Positions 1-60,708 of a DNA stretch of 64,000 nucleotides are shown here, in pieces; within the stretch, counting starts at the first letter, position 1; each line of letters starts with the position of its first letter. Position numbers and translations under genes: made by a program. The notes below the pieces were generated by a model. It did not search any database and had not been told where the DNA came from. It worked only from the letters and a program-made list of their open reading frames with translations. The DNA comes from Candidatus Omnitrophota bacterium (GTDB taxonomy: Bacteria > Omnitrophota > Gorgyraeia > Gygaellales > Profunditerraquicolaceae), in assembly GCA_018825985.1 (NCBI GenBank), contig JAHKAP010000002.1, forward strand, positions 650 to 64,649, in the 5' to 3' direction.

Positions 1-3000
1 ATCAGCGATCCTAATAACGCCAATGCCACTGATACCGGCTATGGCAGCTTCCCGATCCGCGGCAACCTTACATTAGACACGCCAGTGGGAAGTGAAAGCT
101 GGAGTGTTGGTTCAGTTCGTCCGGTCAACTGGACTCGTAAAGGTAATATCATAAATGTCAATATATCTTATTCTACGGATGCCGGTTCTACCTACCCGAC
201 AGCCTTAGCTACTAATTATAACGCCTCATTAGGCACCTGGAATTGGTCAATTTCAAATACTACTCCTTTGACTAATCAGGGCCGGATCAAGGTAGCGGAT
301 GCTTCTAACCCGTCGATAGTATTCGCTAATAACACGGTTAATTTTGAAGTTAAAGGAGCGGTAGAATTAATTACACCTTCGGATGCCGGTATATCTATAG
401 CTGTGGGAAATCCCTATAGCGTTAATTGGACTAAAGCCGGAGCAGTAAATGATGTCCAACTGCATTTTTCACCTGACGGCGGCATTGCCGGAAACGGTAC
501 TTATTCGGATTCGGATTTGATCGGAAATTTCTCAGCTACAAATTATACTAAATCCTGGACAGTACCAGATAGGATCGGCAGCACTTTAAGGATACGGGTA
601 AGGGACTTGAATAATACCGGGGTTTGGGATGAATCTAATAATACATTCCAGATCAGGGGTAAGGTATTTGTGGTAGTTCCTAACGGTGATGAAATCTGGT
701 ATAAAGGGGATACCCAGCAGATCCAGTGGATCCCGACCGGGACTTATTCTCAGGTTAAATTGGAGTATTCTACTAACGCTTTTGTCAATGAGACCTTGAC
801 TTATTTGATTGCTAATGTGTCAGCCGGTTCAAGCGGCGCGGTTACCTCTTACAACTGGACTGTCCCGGATAATATCGGTTCTGACCTTATAGTAAGGGTA
901 ACTGATAGAAATAACGCCATGGTTACGGACGTTTCAAATAATACCTTTAATATAAAAGGAAGACTGCATCTAACATCTCCTAACGGAGGAGAGAACTGGA
1001 TAGTTAATTCTACCCAGCCTATTTACTGGCAGCGCACCGGTTCGATCGCTAACGTAAAGTTAGAGTATTCAACTGATTCTGGTGACAGCTATGCTTTTGT
1101 AATCACTAATTCTACTCCGGCCGCCAGCGGAGAATACAACTGGACTGTTCCGGATTCAATAGGGACTAATAAGATCAAAGTAAAAGTTACTGATGCGTCT
1201 GATGCTACGGTTAATGATGATTCTAACGCCACCTTTACCATAAAAGGCGCTTTGCATTTGAGTATCCCTAATGGAGGCGAAAGTTGGGGAGTAGGGACCA
1301 AGTATAATATTACCTGGGAGCGCACCGGTTCGATCGCTAATGTAACTTTGGAATATTCTACTGACGGCGGCGGAAACTATACTAACAGCATTAACGCGAC
1401 TTCCGGAGCAGCAGGTATTTATGAATGGACTATTCCGGATAACCCCGGCTCACAGATCAAAGTCAGGATTAAAGATACGTCTGATGCTTCGGTCAATGAT
1501 CCTTCAGATACTAATTTCAAGATAGTCGGTTTCCTGACATTGACCGCGCCTGACGGAGGAGAGAAGTGGGTGATCAATACCACCCGCCAGATAAACTGGA
1601 CCATGACCGGTTCGATCGCTAACGTAAAATTAGAATATTCGACCGATGGTTCGTCTTATGATAAATTGATCAATTCTTCAGTGCCCGGAGGCAGCTCGCC
1701 ATATTACTGGTTGATACCGGATACTGCAAGCACTACGGCATTGATAAAAGTAACTGATGCTTCAGAATCCAGCGTTTATGATACTTCCAATAATACTTTT
1801 AAACTTCAGGTTAAGTTTAATCTTACTCAGCCTAAGGGCGGAGAGGTCTGGGTAGTTAATGATACCCAATATATTAACTGGACTACTATCGGCACAGCCG
1901 GAACAGTTAATTTGACCTATTCAACCGATAGCGGGTCTAATTTTAACTATAGTATAGCCAATGATGTGCCTAATACGGGATCTTATTCCTGGATAGTGCC
2001 GAATAATATTTACCAGACCTTAAGGCTTAAGGTAGCTGATTCTCAGGATGCAGAAGCGTTTAACGCTTCTACCAGTAATTTTAAGATCAAAGGCGCTGTC
2101 TCTTTAAGCTCACCTGATGGCAACGAGATCTGGATAGTTAATACTACTCATAATATTACCTGGGGCATTACCGGAAGCGTTCAAACAGTAAGGTTGGATT
2201 ATTCCAATGACGCGGGCAGCGATAATTATGAGCATCCTATTACCAGCAACATAACCGCGCCTTTAGGTAATTATAGCTGGCTGGTGCCGGATAATATCGG
2301 AAATTATACCCGGGTAAAGATTACCGATACCTCTGATTCTACTGTTTTTGATAATTCAACCGGTAATTTCTCGATCAAAGGCGCGCTGGACTTAACTGCT
2401 CCTGATGGCGGAGAAAACTGGATAGTCAATGAGACTCAGCGGATCAATTGGACCCGGACCGGAAATATCCCTAATGTTAGAATCGAATATTCCAAGAATT
2501 CCGGCGGAACATATCCGTTTGCAGTCGTTAATTCAACTGACGCCTCAACAGGATATTATAATTGGTTTATCCCGGATGAGCTCTCAACCGGAGTGAGGAT
2601 TAAGATATCTGACGCGTTAGATCCGGCGGTATATGATAATTCTACGGCTGATTTTATAATTGCCGGTAAATTTACCCTAACCTATCCTACCGGCGGCCAG
2701 ATCCTTTATGTAGGAGAGGGTAAGAATATCACCTGGACCAGGGATGGCTCTATTACTAATGCTAAATTACAATATTCCCGGGACGGAGGGTTAAATTACA
2801 ATTATACCATTACTAACGCTACTGATGCGTCTTTAGGATATTCTAGCTGGGTTATTCCCGATGCTATCGGCGATAAAGTCAAAGTGAAAATCAGCGATCC
2901 CGCTAATACCAATGTCAATGATACCTCAGCGAATAATTTTACAATTAAGGGAAGGCTGAATATTACCGCGCCTGTAGGAGAAGAGACCTATATCGTGGAT

Positions 3001-6000
3001 AACGCTCATCCTATAACTTGGTCTCAGTCAGGCTCGATCGCCACCGTTTCGTTAAGTTATTCTACTGATGGCGGCGGGACCTACCCGTTTAGCATTACCA
3101 ATTCCACGGTCAGTAATGGTTCTTATAGCTGGACTGTCCCGAATATTATAGGTAATAAAATAAAGGTCAGGGTTATAGATACTGCGGATTCCAGCGTTTC
3201 CGGAGATTCAGCGGATAACTTTACAGTTAAAGGATCCATACATGTAACTGCGCCTAACGGCGGAGCCGGACAGATGCTTCAGGTAGGAACAGACTATCCT
3301 ATCAACTGGACCAAGACCGGGACAATATCCACGGTTAATATTACCTATTCTACCGACGCAGGGACGACTTATCCTTATACTATCATTGGTTCAACTGACG
3401 CCGCCGCCGGCACATACACCTGGACTAATATTCCCGATACCATATTTGGAACCTGTAAGGTTAAAATAACCAATAATGCCGATTCTTCGGTAAATGATAC
3501 TTCTGATTTTAATTTTAAGATCGCCGGCGTAGTTAATTTAACTCAGCCTGATGGTGGTGAGCGCTGGACAGTAAATGGCACCCAGGATATTAAATGGAAT
3601 ATAACCGGTTCCATGGCTAATGTAAGTTTAGGTTATTCGGTTGACGGCGGAGGTAATTATACTACCATAGTTGGCGCAACTCCTGCCGGATCTAAGAGTT
3701 TGGCTTGGCAAATACCGAATGCCGTATCCAAGTCAGCTAAGGTAAGGATCGCTGACGCCAGTGACAGCGATGTATTTGACGTATCTTCAAATAATTTTAC
3801 TATCCAGGCAGGGTTTAATATGACTTCACCCGGCGGCGGAGAGATCTGGGTAGTAAATTCTACGCATGATATTAACTGGACTACTATCGGGTCAGTCTCG
3901 ACGGTAAAATTAGCTTATTCTACGGACGGCGGCTCAAATTATAATTACACTATTACTAATTCCACCACTAATACCGGCTCATACCCCTGGTTTGTGCCTA
4001 ATAATATCTCTACTACTATGAGGCTTAGGGTCAGCGATTACAATGATCCTTTGGCATACGGTAATTCCACCAGTAATTTTAAGATCCGCGGAGATATTTA
4101 TGTCATTACTCCGAATAATAATGAATCCTGGATTGTCAATAATACCTATAATATTACCTGGGGCATTACCGGTTCCATATCCGCGGTTAACCTTAAATAT
4201 TCATTGGATGGCGGCTCAAATTATAATTATACCATTGCCAGTAATGTCAGCGCTTCTATCGGGAATTACAGCTGGACCATACCGAACAATATTACAGCCG
4301 CGGCCAGGGTAAAGATAATTGACGGAACCGACTCCTCGGTTTATGATGAATCAGACGCTAATTTTAAAATCCGCGGAAGCCTGACCCTTTTGGCTCCTAA
4401 TGGCGGGGATGTTCTAAACGTAGGGGATACTTATAATATTACCTGGAGCAAAGTAGGTTCGATTGAAAATGTAAATTTGAGCTATTCTACTGATAACGGG
4501 CTCACCTATCCAAATTATCTGGCTACGCTGGATGCAACAGGCGGGATGTACCCCTGGGCAGTAAATGATTCTATCAGCAGGAATATCCGGGTTAAAGTAT
4601 CGGATTCATCGGATCCGATAGTCAATGATACCTCGGATTCCAACGTTACTATCCGGGGTGTATTAAGGATTATCTCTCCTAACGGCAATGAGCGTTGGGA
4701 TGTGCTATCCCATCATAATATAACCTGGAATACCACTGGTTCGATCTCTACGGTAAACATAACTTATTCTACCGACGGAGGGGCTAGTTATAACCGTACA
4801 ATTATCAGTTCAATTGCAGCGGTCCCATCGGTTTACGACTGGGAAGTGCCGGATACCATCTCTTCCTTAGTAAAAGTCAAGGTTTCTAATTTAGCGGACG
4901 GCAATGTATTTGATGTTTCGGATGACAATGCCAATATAGTCGGCAAACTTACTTTATCCTCGCCGGACGGAGGAGAAGTCTGGGCAGTAGGTTCTTCCCA
5001 GACCATCAGTTGGACCAAGGTCGGATCATTCAGTAATATTACTTTATCCTATTCAGCTAACGGCGGGATTGATTATAATTATACAATTAACAATGGGAAT
5101 AATGTTTCCGCGGGCGGCGGTTCAGGTTCATACAGCTGGGATGTGCCGGATGTAGTTTCTACTACTTTGAAGGTAAAAGTAGCGAATGCGGCAGATCCGG
5201 TTGTTAACGACACCTCTAATGCTACATTTAAGATCAGGGGCGACCTTGACCTGACTCGTCCTGATGCCCCGGATTTGGTATTCCTGATCGGCTCCACCGA
5301 GAATATTAACTGGGTCAGGCATGGCTCCATAGCCAACGCTAAACTAAGATATTCAACCGATGGAGGCGCAACTTATCCCTATTGTATTACTAATTCGGTC
5401 AATGCTTCTAATGAAACCTTGCAGTGGTCAGTCCCGGACAGGCCTACTCTTCAAGGCAGGGTTAATATTTCCGATGCGGCAGATTCTACGGTGTTTGATA
5501 CCTCTACCAATAACTTTATAATCCGCGGCGGTTTTGTGGTTAATAGCCCTAATGGAGGGGAAGCCTGGGCGGTAAATTCAACCCATGATATTAACTGGAC
5601 CACTTATGGCTCGATTTCTTATGTCCGGCTGGATTATTCTACTAATAACGGGACCGGCTGGACACTGATAACTACAAATACGTCAAATATTAATCGTTAC
5701 AGTTGGACTATTCCCGATGCCATATCCACAAATTGCAGGGTCAAGGTATCGGACGTCAATGACCCGGATGCCTACGATTTCTCAAATACTTCATTTAAGA
5801 TACATGGAATTTTAGGGGTGAGCGTTCCTAACGGCGGCGAGCAGTGGCAGGTAGGTTCTTATAAGGCGGTTAACTGGACCAGGACCGGCTCGATCGGTAA
5901 CGTGAGGATAGAATATTCCACTAATGGCTTTGCCAATGAAACCCTAACGGTGAAGATCACCAATAATACTCCTTCGTCAGCCTTGACTTATAACTGGACA

Positions 6001-9000
6001 GTCCCGTCTATAATCTCCGATTCTATTAAAATCAGGGTCAGCGATGACGTTGATACCTTGGTGAATGATACTTCCGACGGGCCGTTTAAGATAAAAGCAA
6101 GTTTTACTCTCAGCTCGCCAAACGGAGCCGAGGAATGGATCGTGGCGAGTGCCCATAATATTACCTGGACTACGCTTGGCCCGGCGACAAATATTAAACT
6201 TTCTTTCTCATCTAATAGCGGGAGCAGCTGGAGCAATATAACCGCCGGAGGCGTAAATAATACCGGGAGTTTCTTATGGACAATACCTAATATCATCTCC
6301 ACTAACTGTACAGTAAAGGTGGAGGATTCAACAGATAGCGATGCTGCTGATGTATCGGATGGTAACTTTAAGATCCGGGGTGATTTAAGAATAACCGCTC
6401 CCAACGGCGGGGAAAAATTAATCGTAAATACCAGTGATTATCAGATCACCTGGAATATCACCGGCTCAATATCTACTGTAGGATTGCAGTATTCTATCAA
6501 CAACGGCACTTCGTATCTGCCTATTACAACTTCTGCCCCTAACTTTGGCTATTATACCTGGCTGATCCCGAATGTTAAGACTACTCTCGGATTGGTAAAG
6601 ATATATAACACTGAAGATCCAGGTGTGTTGGATGTATCGGATGCGGTATTTAAGATCCAGGGCAGCTTTGCCCTGAATACGCCTAACGGAGGCGAGAGCT
6701 GGCCGGTAGCAACTGTACGTCCGATAAACTGGACCTGGACCGGGCCGATCAATTATGTAAAATTAGAATACTCTAAAGACGGCGGCAATAATTATAATAA
6801 TACGATTATCGCTTCCGTTAACAACACCGGTAATTATAACTGGACTATTCCCGATGATGTATGCACTACCCTAAGATTAATGATCTCTGATGTGAGCGAC
6901 GCTGAGGCTAAGGCTAATTCCGAAGGAAACTTTACTATTAAGGCGGTATTTAATATCAGCGCTCCCAACGGCGGCGAGAATTGGCTGGTCGGGGATTTAA
7001 ATAATATCCTTTGGAATGTTACCGGGACTATTCCTTATGTGCGCCTGATGTATACCCGGAATAATTTCATTAATTCATATAATATATCGACGGAGAATTT
7101 AGGCGGGTTTACCAATGTTACCTCTAACTCTTTTATTTATAACTGGACTGTTCCTGATACGATATCCTCCGGTGCGCAGCTGCGTATCCTTGATCCGGCA
7201 AATACGGATAATTATCTGGATTCAGCGGCTAACTTCAGTATTAAGTCCAGGTTCAATGTGACTTCGCCGGTTGCCGGAGATAAGTGGGATGTAGATAGTG
7301 TCCAGCAGATCAGATGGACCTGGACCGGCTCAGTGCCGGAAGTCCGCCTGCAGTATTCTATTAACGGAGGCACAAGCTATAGCGATCTTGACGACGGGAT
7401 TTATAACACTACAATAAATCCGGGTTATTATAACTGGACCGTACCGGATAATATAACCGCTTCTTTGAAGGTTAAAGTCGCGGATCTGGCTGATTCAACG
7501 GCCAATGACACTTCTGACGGTAATGCTAAGATCCGGGCCAAATTTACTTTATTTACTCCTAATGGCGGACAGGACCTGACTGTAAATGACACCTATAATA
7601 TTACCTGGGAGTCTGTAGGCACGGTTTCTTTTGTCAACCTTACTTATTCGCTAAATAATTATACCAGCTATTCTACTATTATTACTTCAACGCCTAATGA
7701 CGGCTGTTTTACCTGGACAGTGCCTGACGCTATATCAAACAATGTTACGGTGAGGGTAAGAAGCACTTCTGATATTGACGCTTACAATGATTCCAATACC
7801 GCGTTCAGGATCAAGGGTTCATTGAATGTGACTTCTCCTAACGGGAATGAACAATGGAAGATCAACCAGAAATATAATGTGACCTGGGATACTATCGGGA
7901 CAATTCCTGTGGTAAAGATATTGTATTCTACTAACGGCGGAAATAATTTTAACGGGACCATCATATCCGGGACAGCTAATACCGGAATTTATGAATGGAC
8001 GATTCCCGATATACCTACTACCGGCGGAAAAGTGAGGGTTATCGATTATAATGATTCTGCGGTTTATGATGATTCTAACGCTAATTTCAGCATCCAGGGT
8101 AATGTGATATTGGATTCACCGCTGGGTAATGAGATCTGGATAGTGGGAAGTAAATATAATATTACCTGGACCTGGGGCGGGACAATACCGGCTATATATA
8201 TCGCCTATTCCAATAATAGCGGGGCTAATTATGCGGTTGTTAATGCAGCTGCTCCTAATGGAGCAGGCAGTAGCGGCACCCATACTTATGAATGGACTAT
8301 TCCCGATGACATTACAACTCATGCCAGGGTCAGGATACAGGATGCCAACGATACTAATGTTAATTCAACTTCCGCCAGCGATTTCTATATCAGGGGGAAC
8401 CTGACCATTACTTCGCCTAACGGCGGAGAATATTGGGTAGCCCGCAGCAGTGTGCCGATTACCTGGGGCACGGTGGGCACTATACCGAACGTAAAATTGC
8501 AGTATTCTAAGGATAATGTCAATTATACTACTATAACCAATGCCGCTAATATCAGTAATCAGGATTCATTCACTTGGGCTATACCTAATGATCCGTCCGC
8601 TACAGTGAAGATAAAGATAAGTGATACCCGGGATGCCAATGTTACCGACACCTCGGATACTAATTTTACGATAGGTTACTATAATGTTACCTGGAATCTC
8701 AAGGATCTTTTAACCGGGCAGGACCTATCTCAACTGACAGTAAACGCAGTCTCCAACCAGGGAGACGAATGGAAGAATTCCACTATGCCTGATAATCCCA
8801 ACGCCACCCTGGGTTCGCCGGTCAGTAAAGATATGCCTTTTGGTTTCTGGACAGCAACCTGGACCAAGACCGGCTATAGCGATATCCAGACTAGTTTCTT
8901 GGCCAGCAGTAATATGACCGTGCCGACCTTGTTTATGGAAACTTCAGCTATCCATATCTGGAGGGCATATTCGGAATTTAGTTATGATTCGTATTTGGAC

Positions 9001-11154
9001 AAACTTGCTGTTAGTTCCTGGCTGGAAAGGGATGGTTTTGTGGTTACCGGAGGAACACAATGTGATATTTATATTTATTATGCCGGTGAACTGATACAAC
9101 ATTTAACTGATCTTAGTATAGATGACGCTGGTTTCTTCCAGATGTTCTGGGAAAATACCAATACCTTAATAGCCGGAAGGGTATACACTGTAGTAACTAT
9201 AATTAAAAACGCCAGCGGCGCAGAATTCCGGACTCCTACGTCTTTTAGCGTAACTTCGTCTGCTATGTTGCAGCAGACCGTGGATACCGTGGAACGGATG
9301 AGTAACGTTACTTTCCCGGAATTTATTAACCTGACTAATACCACGATTGTTACTCAGATGCAGCAGCAGGCGATATTGATTGGCGGTTATATGACCAATC
9401 AGACTGATATAATCAATGCCAGCATGACTAATATGACCGGCCTTATCAATACCAGCATGGAGAAACAGATTAATCTAATCGTCGGCGATAGAAGCGCTGA
9501 CGATATTATCTCGGGAGGCGGTATGGTGGGTATGCTGCAGTCTTCCTTAAGTAGCTTTGAAACTAATGCTACGGTAGTTATCGGAAGGCTACAGTCCGGC
9601 GCAGATGCTGCGGTTGGCGCCGGCCAGAATCTGACCGCTACAGCTCAAAGATATTCCTGGAACGCGATCTGCGCGCCTAATCCATCGCTGGCCGGGGATA
9701 ATGTAACCATCAGCGTACAGGGCCCGGATTTTTATGTGGATCCGGTAACCAGCTTAGTATCCACGGTTCAACCCATGCTGACTATTTATAGCTGGGATAA
9801 TAAAGCGGTCGTTGAAAATATAGCTGTTCTTAAAACCCAGCCCGGCCTTTACAGTTATACATTCCAGGTAGATAATACGCGCTTCCAGCCGGGCAAGGCC
9901 TATACTTATATAGTCAGCGAGTCGCAGACCGGAGGCCTGGTTTCCGGTTCAGGCATGGTAGAGTCGATGAGCGTTACTTCTATCGCCGGCCTTGCTTCAG
10001 CGGCTCCGGAAGCGGAACGCGCGGCCAAAGCGGCTTTGGAGGGTATCAGGGCTTTGCAAACAATGCTCGGCGCCGGAGGTAATGACGCGACAAATATCAT
10101 GCTTACGCTGCAGAATTTAAAAGAGGCGTTGGATAAGTTGCCGGAACAGATGGCTGAAGATAAACAAGGATTTAAGGCCCTGACTAGTGATCTTGAGGAT
10201 ATGGCTAGCCGTCTGCAGAAAGTTATCGGCGATGAAGGCTACGGTGACCTTGGCAAACTGCTTGAAGAGAAACTTGCGGATTCTCCGACTATGAAGGCTA
10301 TCCGCAGCAAGACCGATTCTATTAAGACAATTATCGAACTTTTACAGATGTTATTTGAGGCTAAGTTAGGTGGAATGGATTCACCGGTTGTTTCAACTTC
10401 TCTTGCTCCGGGCAGCGTTAAGTTCAGGATAGCCGCGGTTAACCCATCGGCAACCAAGACCCAGCGGGTGATGATTAAAACATATCTGCCGCTGGAGGTA
10501 AAAATTAAGGATATTTTAGATAACGCTGGTTTAGACGTCGGATATGATTCCGGGAAATCAATGTATTATGTTTACCGGGATAGTCTTGAACTTGCCCCTA
10601 AAGAGGCCCGGGTTTTCGAAGTAGAGGTAGAGGATATCTGGTTTGTTCCCAAGAAAGTATTGGACCAGCTTAAGGAGCAGACTGCAAAATTAGCTCTCCG
10701 TTTGGAGAAGTCTAAATATGCCCAGGAATCCCGCTCAACCGCCAATACTATTAACCTGGCCCTGGAAGAAATTGCCAAGACTCAGGCCGATGAGTCAGTG
10801 AGCAGGGATCAGCATATCGGCTCGTACAGGCAGAATTTAGAGACCCTGAAAAAGATTAAAGAGGAGATTGTGCGGTTAGAGAAACTTCTCCAGCCTCAGG
10901 AAGGTACGAATGTTCCGGAGATACTCGAGAAGTCTAAATTTAAATTCAATCTGCCTAATAAAACTACTACCTGGCTGATTATCATGGTTATCATAAGCTT
11001 TATGGGGATGTTGGCCGGAGTATTCTTCTTTATTTGGCAGGGACAGATAAAATCCAGCCAGGAAGTTTTAGATTCTGCGCGCAAAGCCGCTTTCCCCGAC
11101 CAAAAAACAGAAAACAAACCCACGCCTCCGCCGCCCGCCGATAAGAAAACTTAA
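1..11154 (+). CDS. Giant repeat-rich surface protein, 5'-truncated by the window edge. About 30 tandem Ig-like/Kre9-KNH-like beta-sandwich repeats of roughly 92 aa, then a non-repeat region, a coiled coil and a C-terminal transmembrane tail anchor.
   Basis: The reading frame is open from nt 1; the track ORF begins only at an internal GTG at 85. The unit L(T/S)xPNGGExWxVG...I(N/T)W...GSIxxVxLxYSxDGGxxYxxxI......GxYxWxVPDxI....xKVxD......DxSxxxFxI(K/R)G recurs about 30 times. A hydrophobic helix WLIIMVIISFMGMLAGVFFFIW lies about 35 aa from the C-terminus, followed by a Pro/Lys tail. Stop is at 11152-11154. Confidence 0.85.
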   Translation: MSDPNNANATDTGYGSFPIRGNLTLDTPVGSESWSVGSVRPVNWTRKGNIINVNISYSTDAGSTYPTALATNYNASLGTWNWSISNTTPLTNQGRIKVADASNPSIVFANNTVNFEVKGAVELITPSDAGISIAVGNPYSVNWTKAGAVNDVQLHFSPDGGIAGNGTYSDSDLIGNFSATNYTKSWTVPDRIGSTLRIRVRDLNNTGVWDESNNTFQIRGKVFVVVPNGDEIWYKGDTQQIQWIPTGTYSQVKLEYSTNAFVNETLTYLIANVSAGSSGAVTSYNWTVPDNIGSDLIVRVTDRNNAMVTDVSNNTFNIKGRLHLTSPNGGENWIVNSTQPIYWQRTGSIANVKLEYSTDSGDSYAFVITNSTPAASGEYNWTVPDSIGTNKIKVKVTDASDATVNDDSNATFTIKGALHLSIPNGGESWGVGTKYNITWERTGSIANVTLEYSTDGGGNYTNSINATSGAAGIYEWTIPDNPGSQIKVRIKDTSDASVNDPSDTNFKIVGFLTLTAPDGGEKWVINTTRQINWTMTGSIANVKLEYSTDGSSYDKLINSSVPGGSSPYYWLIPDTASTTALIKVTDASESSVYDTSNNTFKLQVKFNLTQPKGGEVWVVNDTQYINWTTIGTAGTVNLTYSTDSGSNFNYSIANDVPNTGSYSWIVPNNIYQTLRLKVADSQDAEAFNASTSNFKIKGAVSLSSPDGNEIWIVNTTHNITWGITGSVQTVRLDYSNDAGSDNYEHPITSNITAPLGNYSWLVPDNIGNYTRVKITDTSDSTVFDNSTGNFSIKGALDLTAPDGGENWIVNETQRINWTRTGNIPNVRIEYSKNSGGTYPFAVVNSTDASTGYYNWFIPDELSTGVRIKISDALDPAVYDNSTADFIIAGKFTLTYPTGGQILYVGEGKNITWTRDGSITNAKLQYSRDGGLNYNYTITNATDASLGYSSWVIPDAIGDKVKVKISDPANTNVNDTSANNFTIKGRLNITAPVGEETYIVDNAHPITWSQSGSIATVSLSYSTDGGGTYPFSITNSTVSNGSYSWTVPNIIGNKIKVRVIDTADSSVSGDSADNFTVKGSIHVTAPNGGAGQMLQVGTDYPINWTKTGTISTVNITYSTDAGTTYPYTIIGSTDAAAGTYTWTNIPDTIFGTCKVKITNNADSSVNDTSDFNFKIAGVVNLTQPDGGERWTVNGTQDIKWNITGSMANVSLGYSVDGGGNYTTIVGATPAGSKSLAWQIPNAVSKSAKVRIADASDSDVFDVSSNNFTIQAGFNMTSPGGGEIWVVNSTHDINWTTIGSVSTVKLAYSTDGGSNYNYTITNSTTNTGSYPWFVPNNISTTMRLRVSDYNDPLAYGNSTSNFKIRGDIYVITPNNNESWIVNNTYNITWGITGSISAVNLKYSLDGGSNYNYTIASNVSASIGNYSWTIPNNITAAARVKIIDGTDSSVYDESDANFKIRGSLTLLAPNGGDVLNVGDTYNITWSKVGSIENVNLSYSTDNGLTYPNYLATLDATGGMYPWAVNDSISRNIRVKVSDSSDPIVNDTSDSNVTIRGVLRIISPNGNERWDVLSHHNITWNTTGSISTVNITYSTDGGASYNRTIISSIAAVPSVYDWEVPDTISSLVKVKVSNLADGNVFDVSDDNANIVGKLTLSSPDGGEVWAVGSSQTISWTKVGSFSNITLSYSANGGIDYNYTINNGNNVSAGGGSGSYSWDVPDVVSTTLKVKVANAADPVVNDTSNATFKIRGDLDLTRPDAPDLVFLIGSTENINWVRHGSIANAKLRYSTDGGATYPYCITNSVNASNETLQWSVPDRPTLQGRVNISDAADSTVFDTSTNNFIIRGGFVVNSPNGGEAWAVNSTHDINWTTYGSISYVRLDYSTNNGTGWTLITTNTSNINRYSWTIPDAISTNCRVKVSDVNDPDAYDFSNTSFKIHGILGVSVPNGGEQWQVGSYKAVNWTRTGSIGNVRIEYSTNGFANETLTVKITNNTPSSALTYNWTVPSIISDSIKIRVSDDVDTLVNDTSDGPFKIKASFTLSSPNGAEEWIVASAHNITWTTLGPATNIKLSFSSNSGSSWSNITAGGVNNTGSFLWTIPNIISTNCTVKVEDSTDSDAADVSDGNFKIRGDLRITAPNGGEKLIVNTSDYQITWNITGSISTVGLQYSINNGTSYLPITTSAPNFGYYTWLIPNVKTTLGLVKIYNTEDPGVLDVSDAVFKIQGSFALNTPNGGESWPVATVRPINWTWTGPINYVKLEYSKDGGNNYNNTIIASVNNTGNYNWTIPDDVCTTLRLMISDVSDAEAKANSEGNFTIKAVFNISAPNGGENWLVGDLNNILWNVTGTIPYVRLMYTRNNFINSYNISTENLGGFTNVTSNSFIYNWTVPDTISSGAQLRILDPANTDNYLDSAANFSIKSRFNVTSPVAGDKWDVDSVQQIRWTWTGSVPEVRLQYSINGGTSYSDLDDGIYNTTINPGYYNWTVPDNITASLKVKVADLADSTANDTSDGNAKIRAKFTLFTPNGGQDLTVNDTYNITWESVGTVSFVNLTYSLNNYTSYSTIITSTPNDGCFTWTVPDAISNNVTVRVRSTSDIDAYNDSNTAFRIKGSLNVTSPNGNEQWKINQKYNVTWDTIGTIPVVKILYSTNGGNNFNGTIISGTANTGIYEWTIPDIPTTGGKVRVIDYNDSAVYDDSNANFSIQGNVILDSPLGNEIWIVGSKYNITWTWGGTIPAIYIAYSNNSGANYAVVNAAAPNGAGSSGTHTYEWTIPDDITTHARVRIQDANDTNVNSTSASDFYIRGNLTITSPNGGEYWVARSSVPITWGTVGTIPNVKLQYSKDNVNYTTITNAANISNQDSFTWAIPNDPSATVKIKISDTRDANVTDTSDTNFTIGYYNVTWNLKDLLTGQDLSQLTVNAVSNQGDEWKNSTMPDNPNATLGSPVSKDMPFGFWTATWTKTGYSDIQTSFLASSNMTVPTLFMETSAIHIWRAYSEFSYDSYLDKLAVSSWLERDGFVVTGGTQCDIYIYYAGELIQHLTDLSIDDAGFFQMFWENTNTLIAGRVYTVVTIIKNASGAEFRTPTSFSVTSSAMLQQTVDTVERMSNVTFPEFINLTNTTIVTQMQQQAILIGGYMTNQTDIINASMTNMTGLINTSMEKQINLIVGDRSADDIISGGGMVGMLQSSLSSFETNATVVIGRLQSGADAAVGAGQNLTATAQRYSWNAICAPNPSLAGDNVTISVQGPDFYVDPVTSLVSTVQPMLTIYSWDNKAVVENIAVLKTQPGLYSYTFQVDNTRFQPGKAYTYIVSESQTGGLVSGSGMVESMSVTSIAGLASAAPEAERAAKAALEGIRALQTMLGAGGNDATNIMLTLQNLKEALDKLPEQMAEDKQGFKALTSDLEDMASRLQKVIGDEGYGDLGKLLEEKLADSPTMKAIRSKTDSIKTIIELLQMLFEAKLGGMDSPVVSTSLAPGSVKFRIAAVNPSATKTQRVMIKTYLPLEVKIKDILDNAGLDVGYDSGKSMYYVYRDSLELAPKEARVFEVEVEDIWFVPKKVLDQLKEQTAKLALRLEKSKYAQESRSTANTINLALEEIAKTQADESVSRDQHIGSYRQNLETLKKIKEEIVRLEKLLQPQEGTNVPEILEKSKFKFNLPNKTTTWLIIMVIISFMGMLAGVFFFIWQGQIKSSQEVLDSARKAAFPDQKTENKPTPPPPADKKT

Positions 11155-11158
11155 GCAG

Positions 11159-11282
11159 AAATGGGGTCAGAATTATTTTTTCACAAAAGAATGGGGTCAG
11201 AATTATTTTTTTTCCTTATTTTGTTTTATAAAAAAATAATTCTGACCCCATTTCTAAAAAAATAATTCTGACCCCATTTTTT
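11159..11282. repeat. Composite palindrome: two direct copies of AATGGGGTCAGAATTATTTTTT followed by two inverted copies. Likely a bidirectional terminator or REP-like element. The same 22-mer pair recurs at 60627-60687.
   Basis: Direct copies at about 11160-11181 and 11190-11212; inverted copies AAAAAATAATTCTGACCCCATTT at about 11231-11253 and 11257-11279. Read directly from the sequence. Confidence 0.8.
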
Positions 11283-11603: not shown

Positions 11604-11680
11604 CAGGGACGGTTCTCATGCCAAAGCTAAAGTGTCCCCGAAAAGGGGACACTTTTAGAACAAATTGAGAACCGTCCCTG
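11604..11680. repeat. Nested palindrome, GGGACGGTTCT family copy A. Outer stem CAGGGACGGTTCTCA/TGAGAACCGTCCCTG; inner hairpin GTGTCCCCgaaaaGGGGACAC.
   Basis: Inverted repeats read directly. Sits between the atpC-like and atpE-like genes. Related copies at 25764-25806 and 37736-37812. Confidence 0.85.
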
Positions 11681-14139: not shown

Positions 14140-14163
14140 ATAAAATGGAAAATAAATATAGAG

Positions 14164-14243
14164 CACGGATTCTCACGGATTTTTATGCGGATTTACACAG
14201 ATTCATCCGTGTGCGTCCGTTATTTTATCCGTGTATATCCGCG
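14164..14243. repeat. Iteron-like array: CACGGAT-type direct heptamers followed by their inverted copies (ATCCGTG) at about 10-11 bp spacing
   Basis: CACGGAT, CACGGAT, GCGGAT, then ATCCGTG, (G)TCCGT, ATCCGTG, ATCCGCG. Between atpA and atpG. A homologous array lies at 37165-37247. Confidence 0.8.
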
Positions 14244-14269
14244 CCTAAGGCATTATTTATTATAGAAGA

Positions 14270-25763: not shown

Positions 25764-25815
25764 GGGACGGTTCTATGCTAAATAGCGATTCGAATAGAAC
25801 CGTCCCTAAATTTTT
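25764..25815 (+). terminator. Intrinsic terminator-like hairpin (GGGACGGTTCT family copy B) followed by a T-run
   Basis: GGGACGGTTCTAT...ATAGAACCGTCCC stem (25764-25776 and 25794-25806), then TAAATTTTT. Ends the atp/gsp cluster. Confidence 0.6.
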
Positions 25816-25997: not shown

Positions 25998-26070
25998 GCT
26001 GGAGTAGCTCAGTTGGTAGAGCACGTCCTTGGTAAGGACGGGGTCGCGGGTTCGATTCCCGTCTCCAGCT
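25998..26070 (+). tRNA. tRNA-Thr (anticodon GGT)
   Basis: Cloverleaf GCTGGAG/CTCCAGC acceptor, GCTC..GAGC D-arm, anticodon stem CGTCC/GGACG with loop TTGGTAA, GTTCGATTCC T-arm. No encoded CCA. Confidence 0.9.
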
Positions 26071-26102
26071 TAGCTAATCCAAGATAATTTGAAAAATAAG
26101 TC

Positions 26103-26177
26103 ATGATTCCAGTGATTAAAAGGCAGATTACGGAGAATAAAACAATCGCTGAAATCTTATTTAAAATCTTTGTAATC
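26103..26177. repeat. Conserved intergenic element ATGATTCCAGnGATTAAAAGnCAGATTAC...AATCGCTGnAATCTT...AAAATCTTTGTAATC, copy 1 of 3
   Basis: Highly similar copies at 47061-47137 and 55277-55367. Contains AGATTAC/GTAATCT-type inverted segments. Confidence 0.8.
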
Positions 26178-26190
26178 AGTAACTAATAAT

Positions 26191-37157: not shown

Positions 37158-37164
37158 AAAAGGG

Positions 37165-37247
37165 CACGGATACACGCGGATAAAAGAACGGATTAACACG
37201 GATAAAATCTGTGAAAATTCCGTGTAAAAAATCCGTGGAAATCGGTG
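37165..37247. repeat. Iteron-like array: four CACGGAT-type direct heptamers then four inverted copies (ATCCGTG) at about 10-11 bp spacing
   Basis: CACGGAT, CGCGGAT, AACGGAT, CACGGAT, then ATCTGTG, TTCCGTG, ATCCGTG, ATCGGTG. Inside the str operon between rpsL and rpsG. Confidence 0.8.
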
Positions 37248-37254
37248 TAAAAAA

Positions 37255-37735: not shown

Positions 37736-37812
37736 CAGGGACGGTTCTGAAACTGATCTTAAACTGTCCCCAAAAAAGGGACACTTTAGCTTTGATTTCA
37801 GAACCGTCCCTG
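37736..37812. repeat. Nested palindrome, GGGACGGTTCT family copy C. Outer stem CAGGGACGGTTCTGA/TCAGAACCGTCCCTG; inner hairpin CTGTCCCCaaaaaaGGGACAC.
   Basis: Read directly. Sits 11 nt upstream of the fusA start codon, inside the normally contiguous rpsG-fusA junction. Confidence 0.85.
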
Positions 37813-41467: not shown

Positions 41468-41568
41468 GCGTTCTTTAGCACAAATGGACACGCATTATCC
41501 CGACGTTTCGTGAAGTCAGCCGGGATCCCGCGTGACTATCAGGATTTGCCGCGGGGTGAGGCGAACAT

Positions 41569-41668
41569 ACACGAATTTATTTGTGTAAATTTGTGTGAGT
41601 TGTAAATTATTTAATTGCTGATTGCGAATTAGTGATAATTCGTGCTAAGAATAGGATAGGTTAAGATA
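41569..41668. promoter_or_regulatory. Conserved leader element ACACGAATTtATTTGTGTAAATTtGTGTGAG...GCGAATTaGTGaTAATTCGTGCTaAgAA...ATAATG upstream of rplC. Homologous copy upstream of rplQ.
   Basis: About 100 nt, nearly co-linear with 56421-56546. Contains direct ACACGAA repeats and the inverted GCGAATTA/TAATTCGTGC. Confidence 0.7.
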
Positions 41669-44373: not shown

Positions 44374-44375
44374 AG

Positions 44376-44598
44376 GCTGTAGGTAGTATGTAGTAGATAG
44401 TAGGCAGGGATTAAATTTCCCCTAAATACTACCTACTAAATACTATCTACTAAGTAAAAGCAGTATGTAGCATATAGTAGGTAGGGATTAGGATATCCCG
44501 GAGAAGCCTACTAAACAAAAAAATAAACAACAATGTAAGTAGAAAAAAGGGGATCAGGGTATCCCTACATACTACCTACTAACTACTATCTACTAAAA
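44376..44598. repeat. Repeat-rich insertion of about 225 bp between rpsS and rplV. TAGTAG / TACTACCTACTAA-word arrays form two palindromic modules, each around a GGGAT...ATCCC hairpin.
   Basis: GTAGGTAGTATGTAGTAGATAGTAGG ... GGGATTAAATTTCCC ... CTAAATACTACCTACTAAATACTATCTACTAAG, and again GTAGGTAGGGATTAGGATATCCC ... GGGGATCAGGGTATCCCTACATACTACCTACTAACTACTATCTACTAA. Confidence 0.8.
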
Positions 44599-44602
44599 TA
44601 AA

Positions 44603-45607: not shown

Positions 45608-45704
45608 GTTGTAAATTAAAAGCGTAATCTTTTAAAATCAAAACCCCGCACCTTCCAACAGGGTATTCTGGGAAGGTGAGGGATAAACAAAAAGCGAGAT
45701 TGAT

Positions 45705-46121: not shown

Positions 46122-46201
46122 ATGAACCCCGCACCTTCTAAAGAATTCAGTTATAATAAGGTAAAAGGTGCCGGGTCCATGAATAAGAGAGAAGGTGCGG
46201 G

Positions 46202-46402
46202 GTGAAAATACAAGAGCTGCGTAATTTATCAAGAGAAGAATTAATAAATAAGGAAAAATCCCTGAAAGAGGAATTGTATAAAATGAATCTTCAGCGTTAC
46301 GGCGGACAGGTAGAAAAACCGCACAAGTTCTCTTTGATCAAGAGGGATATTGTCAGGATCAAAACAATTCTATCGGAAAAGAAAGAGAAAATAAATGGGT
46401 AA
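46202..46402 (+). CDS. rpmC: 50S ribosomal protein L29
   Basis: 66 aa. MKIQELRNLSREELINKEKSLKEELYKMNLQR. Confidence 0.85.
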   Translation: MKIQELRNLSREELINKEKSLKEELYKMNLQRYGGQVEKPHKFSLIKRDIVRIKTILSEKKEKING

Positions 46403-47041: not shown

Positions 47042-47060
47042 AAAGCTGTAAAAAAATATT

Positions 47061-47137
47061 ATGATTCCAGAGATTAAAAGACAGATTACAGAGATAAAGC
47101 TATAATCGCTGTAATCTTTTCTAAAATCTTTGTAATC
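47061..47137. repeat. ATGATTCCAG-family intergenic element, copy 2 (between rplN and rplX)
   Basis: ATGATTCCAGAGATTAAAAGACAGATTACAGAGATAAAGCTATAATCGCTGTAATCTTTTCTAAAATCTTTGTAATC. Perfect 9-bp inverted AGATTACAG/CTGTAATCT. Confidence 0.8.
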
Positions 47138-47157
47138 GCCGTAAAAAAGGAAGCAGA

Positions 47158-47472
47158 ATGTTAAAGATAAAAAAAGGCGATACAGTTCAGGCGATTAAAG
47201 GTAAGGATAAAGGAAAAAAAGGCAAGGTGTTAAACGTATTAGCCAAGGAAAGCCGGATCATAGTTGAGGGTATAAACCTGGCAAAAAAAGCGATGCGAAA
47301 AACACAAACTAATCAACAAGGCGGGATAGTTTCTATCGAGAGGCCTTTACACATATCCAACGTGATGTATTTCTGTAAGGGCTGCAGCCGGCCTTCCCGC
47401 GTAGGGTTTAAGCTTCTGGAAGATAAAACTAAGGTAAGATTTTGCAAAAATTGCAGCGAAAACATACAATAA
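47158..47472 (+). CDS. rplX: 50S ribosomal protein L24 with C-terminal CxxC...CxxC zinc-ribbon-like tail
   Basis: [27 protein letters not shown] (KOW). C-terminus [33 protein letters not shown]. Confidence 0.9.
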
Positions 47473-55267: not shown

Positions 55268-55276
55268 AGGCTGTCA

Positions 55277-55367
55277 ATGATTACACTGATTAAAAAGCAG
55301 ATTCCAGAGATTAAAACATATAACAGAAACAATCGCTGTAATCTTCTTTTAGGAATCTGTGGAATCA
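55277..55367. repeat. ATGATTCCAG-family intergenic element, copy 3 (between rpsD and rpoA)
   Basis: ATGATTACACTGATTAAAAAGCAGATTCCAGAGATTAAAACATATAACAGAAACAATCGCTGTAATCTTCTTTTAGGAATCTGTGGAATCA. Confidence 0.75.
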
Positions 55368-55419
55368 ACAATTAAAAAGATTTTAGCAACAGTTTGTAAA
55401 AAATAAAGGAGCCAAGAAA

Positions 55420-56409
55420 ATGGGTATAAAGTGGAGAGATTTTCAATTACCAAAAAAATTGGAGTGCGAAGAGTCCAGCTATACCGGAAATTACGGAAAA
55501 TTTTTCGCCGCTCCTTTTGAAAGAGGCTATGGCGTTACTTTAGGAAACGCCATAAGAAGGCTGCTATTGTCGTCCATTGAGGGCAGCGCCGTAACATCAG
55601 TAAAGATATCCGGAGTGCAGCATGAGTTCTCCACTATTCCTGGCGTACTCGAAGACGTCCCGGAGATAATCTTAAACCTTAAAAGCCTGATTCTAAAATC
55701 GCATTCCAAAGTATCGAAGACGCTTTATATCAAAAAGAATACTAAGGGCGAGGTCAAGGCCAAGGACATCCAGACCGATGAAAGCGTGGAGGTTATCAAT
55801 CCCGATCTTCACATCGCAACTATCACCGATGATATAAAGCTTAATATGGAGATTGAGGTTTCAAAAGGCAGGGGTTATGTCCCCCAGGATGCGAACAAAA
55901 GAGATGACCAGGTTATCGGGACGATCCCGATTGATTCCATATTTTCTCCGGTAAAAAAGGTCAACTTTAATGTGGAAAATACCCGGGTGGGCCAGAAAAC
56001 CGATTATGACAAACTTATACTTGAGATCTGGACCAATGGAGCAGTAAGCCCTAAAGACGCGCTTTTATATGCTTCAAATATATTACAGAGGCATCTTGAT
56101 ATTTTTGTTAACTTCGGTCAGTTGCCTGATGAGGAAGAGGAAGAACCGGAGATGACCAAGGAAGAGATCGCTCTGTATGAAAAACTCAGACTACCGATCT
56201 CCGAACTTGAACTGTCGGTGAGAAGTTCGAACTGTTTAAGGGAAGCCAATATAAAGACCATAGCGGACCTGGTAAAGAGAGGGGAAGAAGAAATGCTTGG
56301 TTTTAAGAATTTTGGCAAGAAATCTTTAACTGAGATCAAGGAGCTTTTGACCGGGATGAGTTTAAACTTGGGGATGCAGATAGACATCAAGAAACTTAAG
56401 AAATCTTAA
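55420..56409 (+). CDS. rpoA: DNA-directed RNA polymerase alpha subunit
   Basis: 329 aa. N-terminal domain GNAIRRLLLSSIEGSAVTSVKI and C-terminal domain ELSVRSSNCLREANIKTIADL. Confidence 0.95.
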   Translation: MGIKWRDFQLPKKLECEESSYTGNYGKFFAAPFERGYGVTLGNAIRRLLLSSIEGSAVTSVKISGVQHEFSTIPGVLEDVPEIILNLKSLILKSHSKVSKTLYIKKNTKGEVKAKDIQTDESVEVINPDLHIATITDDIKLNMEIEVSKGRGYVPQDANKRDDQVIGTIPIDSIFSPVKKVNFNVENTRVGQKTDYDKLILEIWTNGAVSPKDALLYASNILQRHLDIFVNFGQLPDEEEEEPEMTKEEIALYEKLRLPISELELSVRSSNCLREANIKTIADLVKRGEEEMLGFKNFGKKSLTEIKELLTGMSLNLGMQIDIKKLKKS

Positions 56410-56420
56410 GATTAGAAAGG

Positions 56421-56546
56421 ACACGAACAGACACGAATTTCACACGAACAGACACGAATTAATTTGTGTAAATTAGTGTGAGCCGCGAAAATTTAAAAAG
56501 TAATGGCGAATTGGTGTAAATTCGTGCTTAAAACAAGGATACAATA
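56421..56546. promoter_or_regulatory. Conserved leader element upstream of rplQ: four ACACGAA(C/T) direct repeats at about 10-11 bp period, then ACACGAATTAATTTGTGTAAATTAGTGTGAG...GCGAATTGGTGTAAATTCGTGCTTAAAACAAGGATACAATAATG. Homologous to 41569-41668.
   Basis: Read directly and aligned by eye with the rplC leader. Confidence 0.7.
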
Positions 56547-60624: not shown

Positions 60625-60626
60625 GA

Positions 60627-60687
60627 AATGGGGTCAGAATTATTTTTTTATTCTATGTAATCGTAAAAAATAATTCTGACCCCATTT
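60627..60687. terminator. Hairpin from one direct plus one inverted copy of the AATGGGGTCAGAATTATTTTTT 22-mer (same family as 11159-11282). Likely bidirectional terminator or REP-like.
   Basis: AATGGGGTCAGAATTATTTTTT (60627-48), a 16-nt loop, then AAAAAATAATTCTGACCCCATTT (60665-87). Starts 3 nt after the pilT stop. Confidence 0.7.
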
Positions 60688-60708
60688 CCCCCATTTATCC
60701 CTAAGTAT

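Follow-up and report, generated by a model that had tools for sequence, protein, structure and literature searches.

The stretch of DNA analysed here, referred to throughout as the window, comprises 64,000 nt of the genome of a Candidatus Omnitrophota bacterium (GCA_018825985.1, contig JAHKAP010000002.1, positions 650 to 64,649 of the forward strand). All genes of the window lie on the plus strand, with a giant open reading frame (ORF) followed by the atp operon and then by the rpoBC, str, S10, spc and alpha operons. An identical S7 protein is encoded by GCA_018827765.1 and was also found in several sequencing runs; the close relatives of this protein all come from Omnitrophota metagenome-assembled genomes (MAGs). 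Nearly every operon-internal gap of at least 60 nt in the window contains a palindromic element. We focus on two of these, located in the atpA-atpG and rpsL-rpsG gaps, in which direct repeats of the heptamer CACGGAT are followed by inverted copies. A first-pass annotation of the sequence had interpreted both arrays as cooperative binding sites for a dimeric DNA-binding protein, with a long interrupted RNA hairpin as a second possibility. Our analysis identifies them as two copies of a dispersed hairpin element, relatives of which carry a nuclease gene in the loop:

14164-14243, minus strand: ORF-less CACGGAT-family hairpin element with four direct and four inverted heptamers (4+4), atpA-atpG gap (sequence, nhmmer, alignment, fold)
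37165-37247, plus strand: ORF-less CACGGAT-family 4+4 hairpin element with A-rich spacers, rpsL-rpsG gap (sequence, nhmmer, fold)

Both arrays are located where the annotation had placed them, whereas its count of three to four heptamers per arm does not hold, as each arm contains four. In the atpA-atpG element these are CACGGAT, CACGGAT, TGCGGAT and CACAGAT, followed by inverted ATCCGTG, GTCCGTT, ATCCGTG and ATCCGCG; the start-to-start distances are 10, 12 and 10 nt in the left arm, 9 nt across the centre and 10, 12 and 10 nt in the right arm. The rpsL-rpsG element is composed of CACGGAT, CGCGGAT, AACGGAT and CACGGAT, followed by ATCTGTG, TTCCGTG, ATCCGTG and ATCGGTG, with the same 10-12-10 spacing in the left arm, 10 nt across the centre and 11, 13 and 10 nt on the right. 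The true repeat unit of both arrays is approximately 22 nt long and combines two heptamers with one short and one long spacer. The rpsL-rpsG element fills its gap, beginning 7 nt past the rpsL stop codon and ending 7 nt short of the rpsG start.

The reverse complement of 14155-14255 aligns with 37158-37254 over the full length, spacers included, with a score of 85 compared with 42 in the same orientation and a maximum of 19 among shuffles. This identifies the two window arrays as copies of one element of ~85 nt, in opposite orientations relative to transcription. Because the element is antisense to the atp operon, the spacers of the atpA-atpG array are T-rich on the mRNA strand. In agreement with these orientations, with an nhmmer profile built from metagenome copies only, the minus strand outscored the plus strand at 14164-14242 (63.2 and 33.5 bits), and the plus strand outscored the minus strand at 37165-37247 (56.9 and 23.7 bits). 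Exact CACGGAT occurs nine times in the window, with 4.96 ± 2.06 expected; 4 of 100 shuffles reached nine, so this count is not significant, and we rejected whole-window enrichment of the exact words CACGGAT or CACGAAT as a signal. Significance attaches only to the clustering: with a threshold of three or more direct plus three or more inverted 7-mers, a detector identified five arrays in the window, compared with zero across three shuffles of 282 kb.

The suggestion of a long interrupted hairpin at the RNA level is borne out by the predicted folds. The atpA-atpG array folds at -39.3 kcal/mol (z = -5.9 against shuffles), and the rpsL-rpsG array at -32.5 kcal/mol in the sense and -21.3 kcal/mol in the antisense direction (z = -8.3). 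At gathering score, Rfam 15 matched only two tRNAs across the whole window and no RNA family at the arrays. A simple promoter and terminator scan at both arrays found neither a promoter-like site nor a terminator on the sense strand. The elements also differ from intrinsic terminators in that sense-oriented copies continue into UAAAAA.

We then compared the two arrays with metagenome sequences. The scan pattern consisted of the positions common to both window copies, and the resulting copy set is biased by that pattern. At least 120 stretches matched; among the matches listed, approximately 35 represent the full element with nearly the same sequence on many contigs, and the profile built from metagenome copies retrieved at least 34 unique full copies. 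A scan of viral contigs with the element pattern gave two chance matches only. The element is composed of two four-heptamer arms that pair into four helices of 6-8 bp, with ~28-29 pairs in total separated by unpaired, mostly A-rich internal loops; it thereby has the terminal inverted repeats and long enclosing stem typical of rRNA intervening sequences (IVSs). Among 32 non-redundant full copies the arms form 29 pairs, 92% of them Watson-Crick. Outside the positions fixed by the pattern, the information content of these copies is 1.78 bits in paired and 0.78 bits in unpaired columns, and across the family the heptamers are nearly invariant and the spacers freely variable. Compensated pairs were found in 1 of 910 pair cells, and RNAalifold returned 28 pairs at -37 kcal/mol with no compensated pair and a covariation term of -0.03. 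The heptamer word is far more conserved than pairing requires, which makes sequence-specific recognition by a protein, possibly the element's own nuclease, plausible.

The copies are oriented with their flanking genes in 26 of 30 independent cases (p = 6e-5), and on the element strand G.U pairs exceed A.C mismatches (30 and 12, respectively, in the 32 copies). Both the sense bias and the G.U excess point to the transcript, while transcription-linked mutation bias or a gene-carrying ancestor could be alternative sources of these signals. The elements typically fill their gaps, beginning 0-40 nt past the upstream stop and ending 0-40 nt before the next start, and the flanks of the 32 copies extend the palindrome (T-run+A ... 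T+A-run). Tandem, truncated and nested-palindrome copies occur in the family. Two tandem CACGGAT elements at L160:1712-1881 correspond to three at the same locus in L173:700-956; the period is 87 nt, and unequal exchange or slippage accounts for the difference in copy number. Within other CACGGAT elements, at the centre or in the right arm, we observed small palindromes or a CCGGTT-type array (L169:4230-4382, L177:212-322, L191:2569-2683, L208:4804-4911, L121:5397-5507), and the elements appear to insert into each other.

The positions of these elements turn over between species. Contigs L001-L006, from the same species, are 99.8-100% identical, carry an identical rpsL-rpsG array and show no variation in the arrays, so that they carry no information on how these evolve. 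The CACGGAT array at rpsL-rpsG was absent from every other Omnitrophota species examined, including L197, which is syntenic with the window at ~80% amino acid identity. In L197, CACGGAT copies are instead located at rplL-rpoB and rpoB-rpoC, whereas rpoB and rpoC abut in the window. Its other gaps contain a CAGATTA array (rplJ-rplL), CCGGTT-type arrays (rpoC-rpsL and fusA-tuf) and unrelated hairpins (rpsL-rpsG). The array families are common to the species while their positions change; the absence of the element from the same junctions in relatives, with other families found there, indicates turnover like that of a mobile element and not a conserved operator. The first-pass annotation had named a lack of conservation in relatives, or repeat-type hairpins, as the outcome that would count against its binding sites, and this is largely what the comparison returned. 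The atpA-atpG junction is occupied both in the window and in the related Omnitrophota contig L213, which encodes AtpA and AtpD proteins 77% and 80% identical to those of the window.

The identity of the element became apparent from copies with a gene between the arms. In L111, L144 and L159 the profile matches are split by a 124-residue ORF, which has the left arm immediately upstream and the right arm immediately downstream. The junctions are exact: the last left heptamer is contiguous with the ATG (CACGGAT|ATGGG), and the TAA runs into the first right heptamer (GGA TAA TCCGTG). The encoded protein belongs to PF13366 (PDDEXK_3; E = 1e-35 to 1e-37) and to TIGR04256 ("GxxExxY protein"), a family of function listed as unknown (PMC3424549). 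Residues E30, P68, D69, E79 and K81, corresponding to the catalytic positions, are invariant in 51 homologues, and judged from these residues the PD-(D/E)XK active site appears intact. The predicted structure (mean predicted local distance difference test score, pLDDT, of 94.7) corresponds to a minimal PD-(D/E)XK nuclease domain. A fold search with this model returned only generic, weak PD-(D/E)XK matches (template modelling score ~0.55), and a sequence search of the PDB found no relative.

The association between arms and gene is systematic. All 15 PDDEXK_3 ORFs and both ORFs of the rRNA intervening-sequence protein (IVP) family in the first set of 17 were flanked by arms, as were six cassettes identified later. 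At least three copies of a word upstream and at least three reverse complements downstream were found for 13 of the 17 PDDEXK_3 and IVP ORFs and for none of 400 control ORFs; this scoring of the flanks of identified ORFs replaced a loose array-gene-array search (3+3 heptamers, one mismatch), which was too noisy. In all 12 minimum-energy folds of cassettes the arms pair across the ORF, and the cassettes are all sense-oriented between housekeeping genes. Being sense-oriented in the spacers of housekeeping operons, they depend on host transcription. In an Endomicrobiales MAG, a cassette with near-canonical CACGGAT arms and a 72%-identical protein is located between nifS and nifU, and by this sequence comparison the cassette is spread across phyla. 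Between subfamilies the arm words change on both sides together (CACGGAT/ATCCGTG, CGCGGAT/ATCCGCG, CGCAGAT/ATCTGCG and GGTTAAG/CTTAACC), and they do so in step with protein divergence: CACGGAT arms accompany proteins of at least 72% identity, CGCGGAT arms a protein of 63%, and CGCAGAT arms a more distant paralogue. In some PDDEXK_3 subfamilies the right-arm heptamers encode the last 10-15 codons of the nuclease, giving a C-terminal extension ...DNPRTISAVISD (L213:3377-3423; L217:3355-3396), so that arm sequence and protein tail are coupled.

The atp operon of L213 links these cassettes to the ORF-less copies of the window. Its order is atpE, PDDEXK_3 cassette, atpH, atpA, PDDEXK_3 cassette, atpG, ORF-less copy, atpD. 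Compared with the neighbouring cassette, the solo copy is identical at 56 of 57 nt on the left and 52 of 56 nt in the right arm; what it lacks is the ORF interior, exactly 373 nt. One operon therefore contains the same element both with and without the ORF; with the split matches in L111, L144 and L159, these forms represent the pair of alleles with precise junctions that characterises homing-endonuclease genes.

Similar hairpins enclose an unrelated gene. We identified PF05635 genes (23S_rRNA_IVP, "four helix bundle protein") wedged into operons in L217, L190 and four further contexts, for example between fabG and acpP and between thrS and infC. Heptamer arrays lie on one side of these genes and the inverse arrays on the other, mostly in tandem with a period of 7. 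PF05635 genes occupy hairpins of this design in L217, L190, L220, L223 and L225, and, as in rRNA IVSs, the loop ORF is optional, with ORF-less forms also present. The first-pass annotation had emphasised the helical periodicity of the arrays; this applies to the PDDEXK_3-type arms and does not extend to the class, since the sister cassettes and the Coxiella IVS (PMC4990558) have period 7. An rnc gene is found on some cassette-bearing contigs. Where an IVP cassette occupies the fabG-acpP-fabF-rnc cluster (L219-L222 and L228-L229, about 2501-5155), rnc is co-transcribed three genes downstream of the insertion, which probably reflects the common fab-rnc linkage.

The closest described counterpart is the 23S rRNA IVS of Coxiella burnetii, Leptospira and Salmonella, where a selfish stem-loop is inserted into a unit with a high level of transcription. 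In Coxiella, the IVS is closed by a 28-bp terminal stem cut by RNase III, and its loop contains an S23p ORF; three tandem GACAGAT heptamers and a degenerate fourth directly precede the ATG, and their number varies among strains (PMC4990558). Insertions with and without an ORF coexist in rRNA, and IVSs are cut without ligation (PMC11270868). The hairpins described here share with them the design, the optional small S23p/PF05635-family loop ORF with coexisting ORF-less forms, the direct heptamers immediately upstream of the ORF start and a sporadic distribution that looks horizontally transferred; the CAGATTA family of the window (see below) contains GACAGAT itself. Unlike 23S rRNA IVSs, which occupy helix 25 or 45, the elements lie in spacers between protein-coding genes; this applies to both arrays of the window, which contains no rRNA. 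The cargo of the CACGGAT family is the PF13366 nuclease and not S23p/PF05635, its heptamers are 10-12 nt apart with unpaired A-rich loops and not tandem, and the window copies are ORF-less. RNase III cleavage, demonstrated for rRNA IVSs, would by analogy extend to the CACGGAT elements. A second counterpart is the homing-endonuclease gene of self-splicing introns, where a structured RNA likewise accommodates a small nuclease ORF precisely within one of its loops, the fold of the RNA being undisturbed, where ORF-plus and ORF-minus carriers coexist (in L213, in adjacent gaps), and where the gene is sense-oriented, dependent on host transcription and distributed across phyla. In contrast with such introns, there is no ribozyme and no ligation, and the hairpin carrier would be cut out and not spliced. 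Without ligation, such a carrier would be confined to the spaces between cistrons and to rRNA helices in which fragmentation is tolerated.

Based on these comparisons, we consider the window arrays to be ORF-less copies of a mobile, selfish, IVS-type hairpin cassette residing in mRNA spacers, with a probability of roughly 0.7. Family membership, the ORF-plus/ORF-minus dimorphism, positional turnover, sense bias, the predicted hairpin and the intact catalytic residues of the nuclease are established directly. As to mechanism, the stem would form in the polycistronic mRNA and be cut by RNase III as in rRNA IVSs, and this cut would allow an insertion between cistrons to be tolerated. The nuclease may drive the spread of the cassette by homing into empty hairpins that belong to its family; the heptamers would then provide both the recognition and the homology sequence, and such homing would account for a word conserved beyond pairing. 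The window copies would then have no regulatory role for the atp and ribosomal-protein genes beyond providing a stable or cleavable intercistronic structure.

Several observations weigh against this interpretation. A tblastn search found no nuclease gene in the 64-kb window. The case for RNase III cleavage of these elements is one of analogy, and RNase III, an enzyme of little sequence specificity, leaves the strong conservation of the heptamer word unexplained. With 0-1 compensated pairs, within-family covariation is absent, so RNA structure is argued from conservation, fold energy and the covariation between subfamilies, all of which a DNA-level inverted repeat would show too. Sense-strand mutation associated with transcription (C>T and A>G) could produce the G.U excess. 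The atpA-atpG copy of the window is one of the 4 of 30 that lie opposite to their flanking genes. The strand asymmetry of folding is mixed within the window, as this copy folds about equally on both strands and a GTAG-rich array family favours the antisense strand; the asymmetry could be interpreted only once the 32 copies were compared. Finally, neither a target-site duplication nor another insertion signature was detected in the flanks of the 32 copies.

A more general form of this interpretation, which we put forward tentatively and would not back at even odds, holds that heptamer-array hairpins are a general, undescribed class of IVS-like carriers in bacterial operon spacers, excised by RNase III instead of spliced, and serving as havens for free-standing selfish genes, much as introns shelter homing endonucleases. 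Their cargo would include PF13366, homing by way of the heptamers, as well as PF05635, and the 23S IVS would be a special case resident in rRNA. No description of such elements was found in the open-access literature on GxxExxY, PF13366, PF05635/S23p outside rRNA or Omnitrophota repeats. If the interpretation is correct, it accounts for the periodic heptamer hairpins that fill gaps within the operons of this Omnitrophota bacterium, and within those of some Acidobacteriota, Elusimicrobiota and Planctomycetota genomes. It would also provide a genomic context, and hence a testable function, for two very large uncharacterised families, PF13366 and PF05635, and the long-puzzling rRNA IVSs would represent one habitat of a broader class found wherever an RNA cut is harmless. 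For annotation, such arrays are not to be taken for operators, iterons or leaders; they break metagenome assemblies, and the small ORFs that they enclose are located in essential operons.

Among the alternatives, recognition at the DNA level has the strongest claim, although we regard it as unlikely to be the full account. Here the heptamers would be binding or cleavage sites, most plausibly for the element's own PD-(D/E)XK nuclease, which would engage the 4+4 sites as a multimer; it is in DNA that the hairpin or cruciform would matter, for mobility or homing, and RNA structure would be incidental. This overlaps the homing step of the mobile-cassette interpretation. The information content of heptamers over spacers (1.78 and 0.78 bits) and the near absence of compensated pairs (1 in 910 cells, none by RNAalifold) fit it well, as do the spacing of ~10-12 bp in PDDEXK_3-type arms, which would place the sites on one face of B-DNA, the intact nuclease active site and the shift of the arm word with protein divergence. 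However, hairpins of the same design enclose the unrelated, non-nuclease PF05635 between tandem period-7 heptamers, which shows that the architecture is tied neither to one protein nor to helical phasing, and the strong sense bias together with the excess of G.U over A.C points to the transcript.

We also considered a repetitive extragenic palindromic (REP) or REPIN-type repeat, or a MITE (a miniature transposable element with inverted repeats), moved in trans by a REP-associated tyrosine transposase (RAYT) or an insertion sequence (IS) transposase, with the nuclease and IVP genes as chance passengers in the loop. Like REP, BIME and REPIN repeats and bacterial MITEs such as Correia, ERIC, RUP and Nezha, the elements are short, multi-copy, intergenic, palindromic, hairpin-forming, nested and variable between related genomes, and they break assemblies. 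Assemblies of this genome also break at another repeat family, and a GTAG-rich family is present. In contrast with these repeats, the CACGGAT element is ~85 nt long, starts with (A)CACGGAT and has no GTAG or CGTC head; its arms are internally repetitive, with four heptamers each, and it lacks terminal inverted repeats combined with a target-site duplication. No RAYT or IS transposase was found beside any copy in the ~2 Mb examined, in a search that was not exhaustive, and no IS-like parent was found. The arm-flanked genes of its autonomous relatives encode a PD-(D/E)XK nuclease (PF13366) or an IVP (PF05635) and not a Y1 or other transposase, and their ORF-arm junctions are precise and reproducible in at least 20 cassettes from two protein families, as expected of a co-evolved unit and not of chance passengers. 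On this evidence the REP/MITE explanation is improbable.

Domestication of the elements as intercistronic mRNA stabilisers, processing sites or attenuators, tuning atpA relative to atpG and atpD, or rpsL relative to rpsG, is improbable as well. REP hairpins of E. coli are known mRNA stabilisers, and the window hairpins are stable (-32 to -39 kcal/mol) and located exactly between cistrons, with the last heptamer 7 nt from the rpsG start. Nevertheless, they are not conserved at these junctions in relatives, the two copies have opposite orientations, the simple scan found no sense-strand terminator, and a stoichiometric logic is lacking, as the rpsL:rpsG ratio is 1:1 and atpD lies downstream of atpG. 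Iteron-like operators bound cooperatively by a dimeric host regulator inside the atp and str operons, as first proposed, are very unlikely: despite the two-fold symmetry and the resemblance to plasmid Rep iterons and Pho boxes in short direct repeats about one helical turn (~10-12 bp) apart with a conserved core and variable spacers, the two arrays are oppositely oriented copies of a single dispersed repeat, an inverse array follows each direct one, the at least 34 copies occupy dozens of gaps between unrelated genes on many contigs and include tandem, truncated and nested forms, a nuclease gene lies between such arms in relatives, the site is missing at the same junctions in all other species examined and other families take its place, and the arrays lie in gaps internal to housekeeping operons, with no origin, no promoter-like site on the sense strand and no adjacent Rep or regulator gene.

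Three further identities were considered and discarded: CsrA-type GGA sites, as the GGA is paired and is absent from the sister families; integron attC sites, as the flanking genes are core operon genes and not cassettes; and multi-site transposon ends of the Tn7/Mu type, as no transposase is present.

Arrays of this kind are not confined to two gaps, as the first-pass annotation had implied. At least nine heptamer-array elements, belonging to four word families, are present in the window (CACGGAT, two; CACGAA, two; CAGATTA/GACAGAT, three; GTAGGTA, two), which makes the CACGGAT arrays one instance of a genome-wide feature. The additional elements are as follows:

56421-56527, plus strand: CACGAA-family 4+4 heptamer hairpin upstream of rplQ (sequence, fold, detector, homology)
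41475-41648, plus strand: second CACGAA-family element, rpsJ-rplC gap (arms, fold, homology)
47060-47140, plus strand: CAGATTA/GACAGAT-family heptamer hairpin, gap before the ORF at 47158 (detector, fold, homology)
55276-55372, plus strand: CAGATTA-family heptamer hairpin, gap before the ORF at 55420 (array search, fold, homology)
26102-26180, plus strand: CAGATTA-family heptamer hairpin downstream of the tRNA at 25998-26070 (array search, fold, homology)
44376-44455, plus strand: GTAGGTA-family array hairpin, gap 44374-44602 (array search, fold)
44468-44600, plus strand: second, composite GTAGGTA-family hairpin with nested small GC hairpins, gap 44374-44602 (array search, fold)

The leader upstream of rplQ had been described as a direct repeat only. 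Its left arm (ACACGAA x4, 56421-56460) is in fact followed by four inverted partners at 56461-56481 and 56509-56527, so that the array forms a 4+4 hairpin; the right arm reads ATTTGTGT, TTAGTGTG, a 27-nt insert, TTGGTGT and ATTCGTG. This hairpin folds at -32.0 in the sense and -27.4 in the antisense direction and is homologous to the copy at 41560 in the same orientation (score 93 against 27). In that copy, the rpsJ-rplC element, the outer arms (41475-41496 and 41627-41648) are interrupted by a nested GC-rich hairpin at ~41497-41563, and the core folds at -24.4 sense and -12.0 antisense. The three CAGATTA-family copies share their orientation, with pairwise scores of 73-112, and the one at 47060-47140 contains exact GACAGAT, the heptamer reported for the Coxiella IVS.

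Arrays of the same kind were observed outside this species. In the Acidobacteriota MAG MFD01476.bin.2.38 (L049), gaps of the ribosomal-protein operons are filled with ORF-less tandem-heptamer hairpins, for example (GATTCGA)x4 followed by (TCGAATC)x4:

L049, 3354-3423, 14114-14182, 14813-14888, 16974-17039, 19058-19127 and 19513-19591: ORF-less hairpins

Their presence in an unrelated phylum suggests that the class is widespread. Another Omnitrophota species (L014:1375-1498 and 10474-10576) has 4+4 arrays of CGCAAAA/CGCGAAA with TTTTGCG partners and G.U pairs on the sense strand, one of them directly after rpsG.

GTAG-rich arrays (GTAGGTAGTATGTAGTAGATAGTAGG...) occur at 44374-44602 of the window, at L087:6843-6880 and in the rpsL-rpsG gap of L011, and recall GTAG-tagged REP repeats. 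They fold slightly better on the antisense strand, and in L087 direct-only versions precede a terminator-like hairpin. A separate hairpin family, GGGACGGTTCT ... AGAACCGTCCC, is near-perfect (-45 to -55 kcal/mol) and is found at 11604-11680, 25764-25807 and 37736-37812 of the window and at L008:10472-10530; two of its copies enclose a further GTGTCCCC...GGGGACAC hairpin. This family differs from the heptamer arrays in being present at the same gap, rpsG-fusA, in a second species (L008). Window position 37807, within this repeat, is where several independent assemblies stop.

The giant ORF at the start of the window (85-11154) encodes 3689 residues and is typical of Omnitrophota. It is followed at 11157-11282 by a nested 2+2 perfect hairpin of AATGGGGTCAGAATTATTTTTT (-62.6 kcal/mol), which recurs as a single hairpin at 60625-60688, after an ORF ending at 60624, and at L087:754-817. 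These hairpins are flanked on both sides by A- and T-runs and look like a duplicated or nested bidirectional terminator. A further small repeat family, CCCCGCACCTTC ... GAAGGTGCGGGG, forms hairpins in two successive gaps of the S10/spc region (45644-45682 and 46126-46203).

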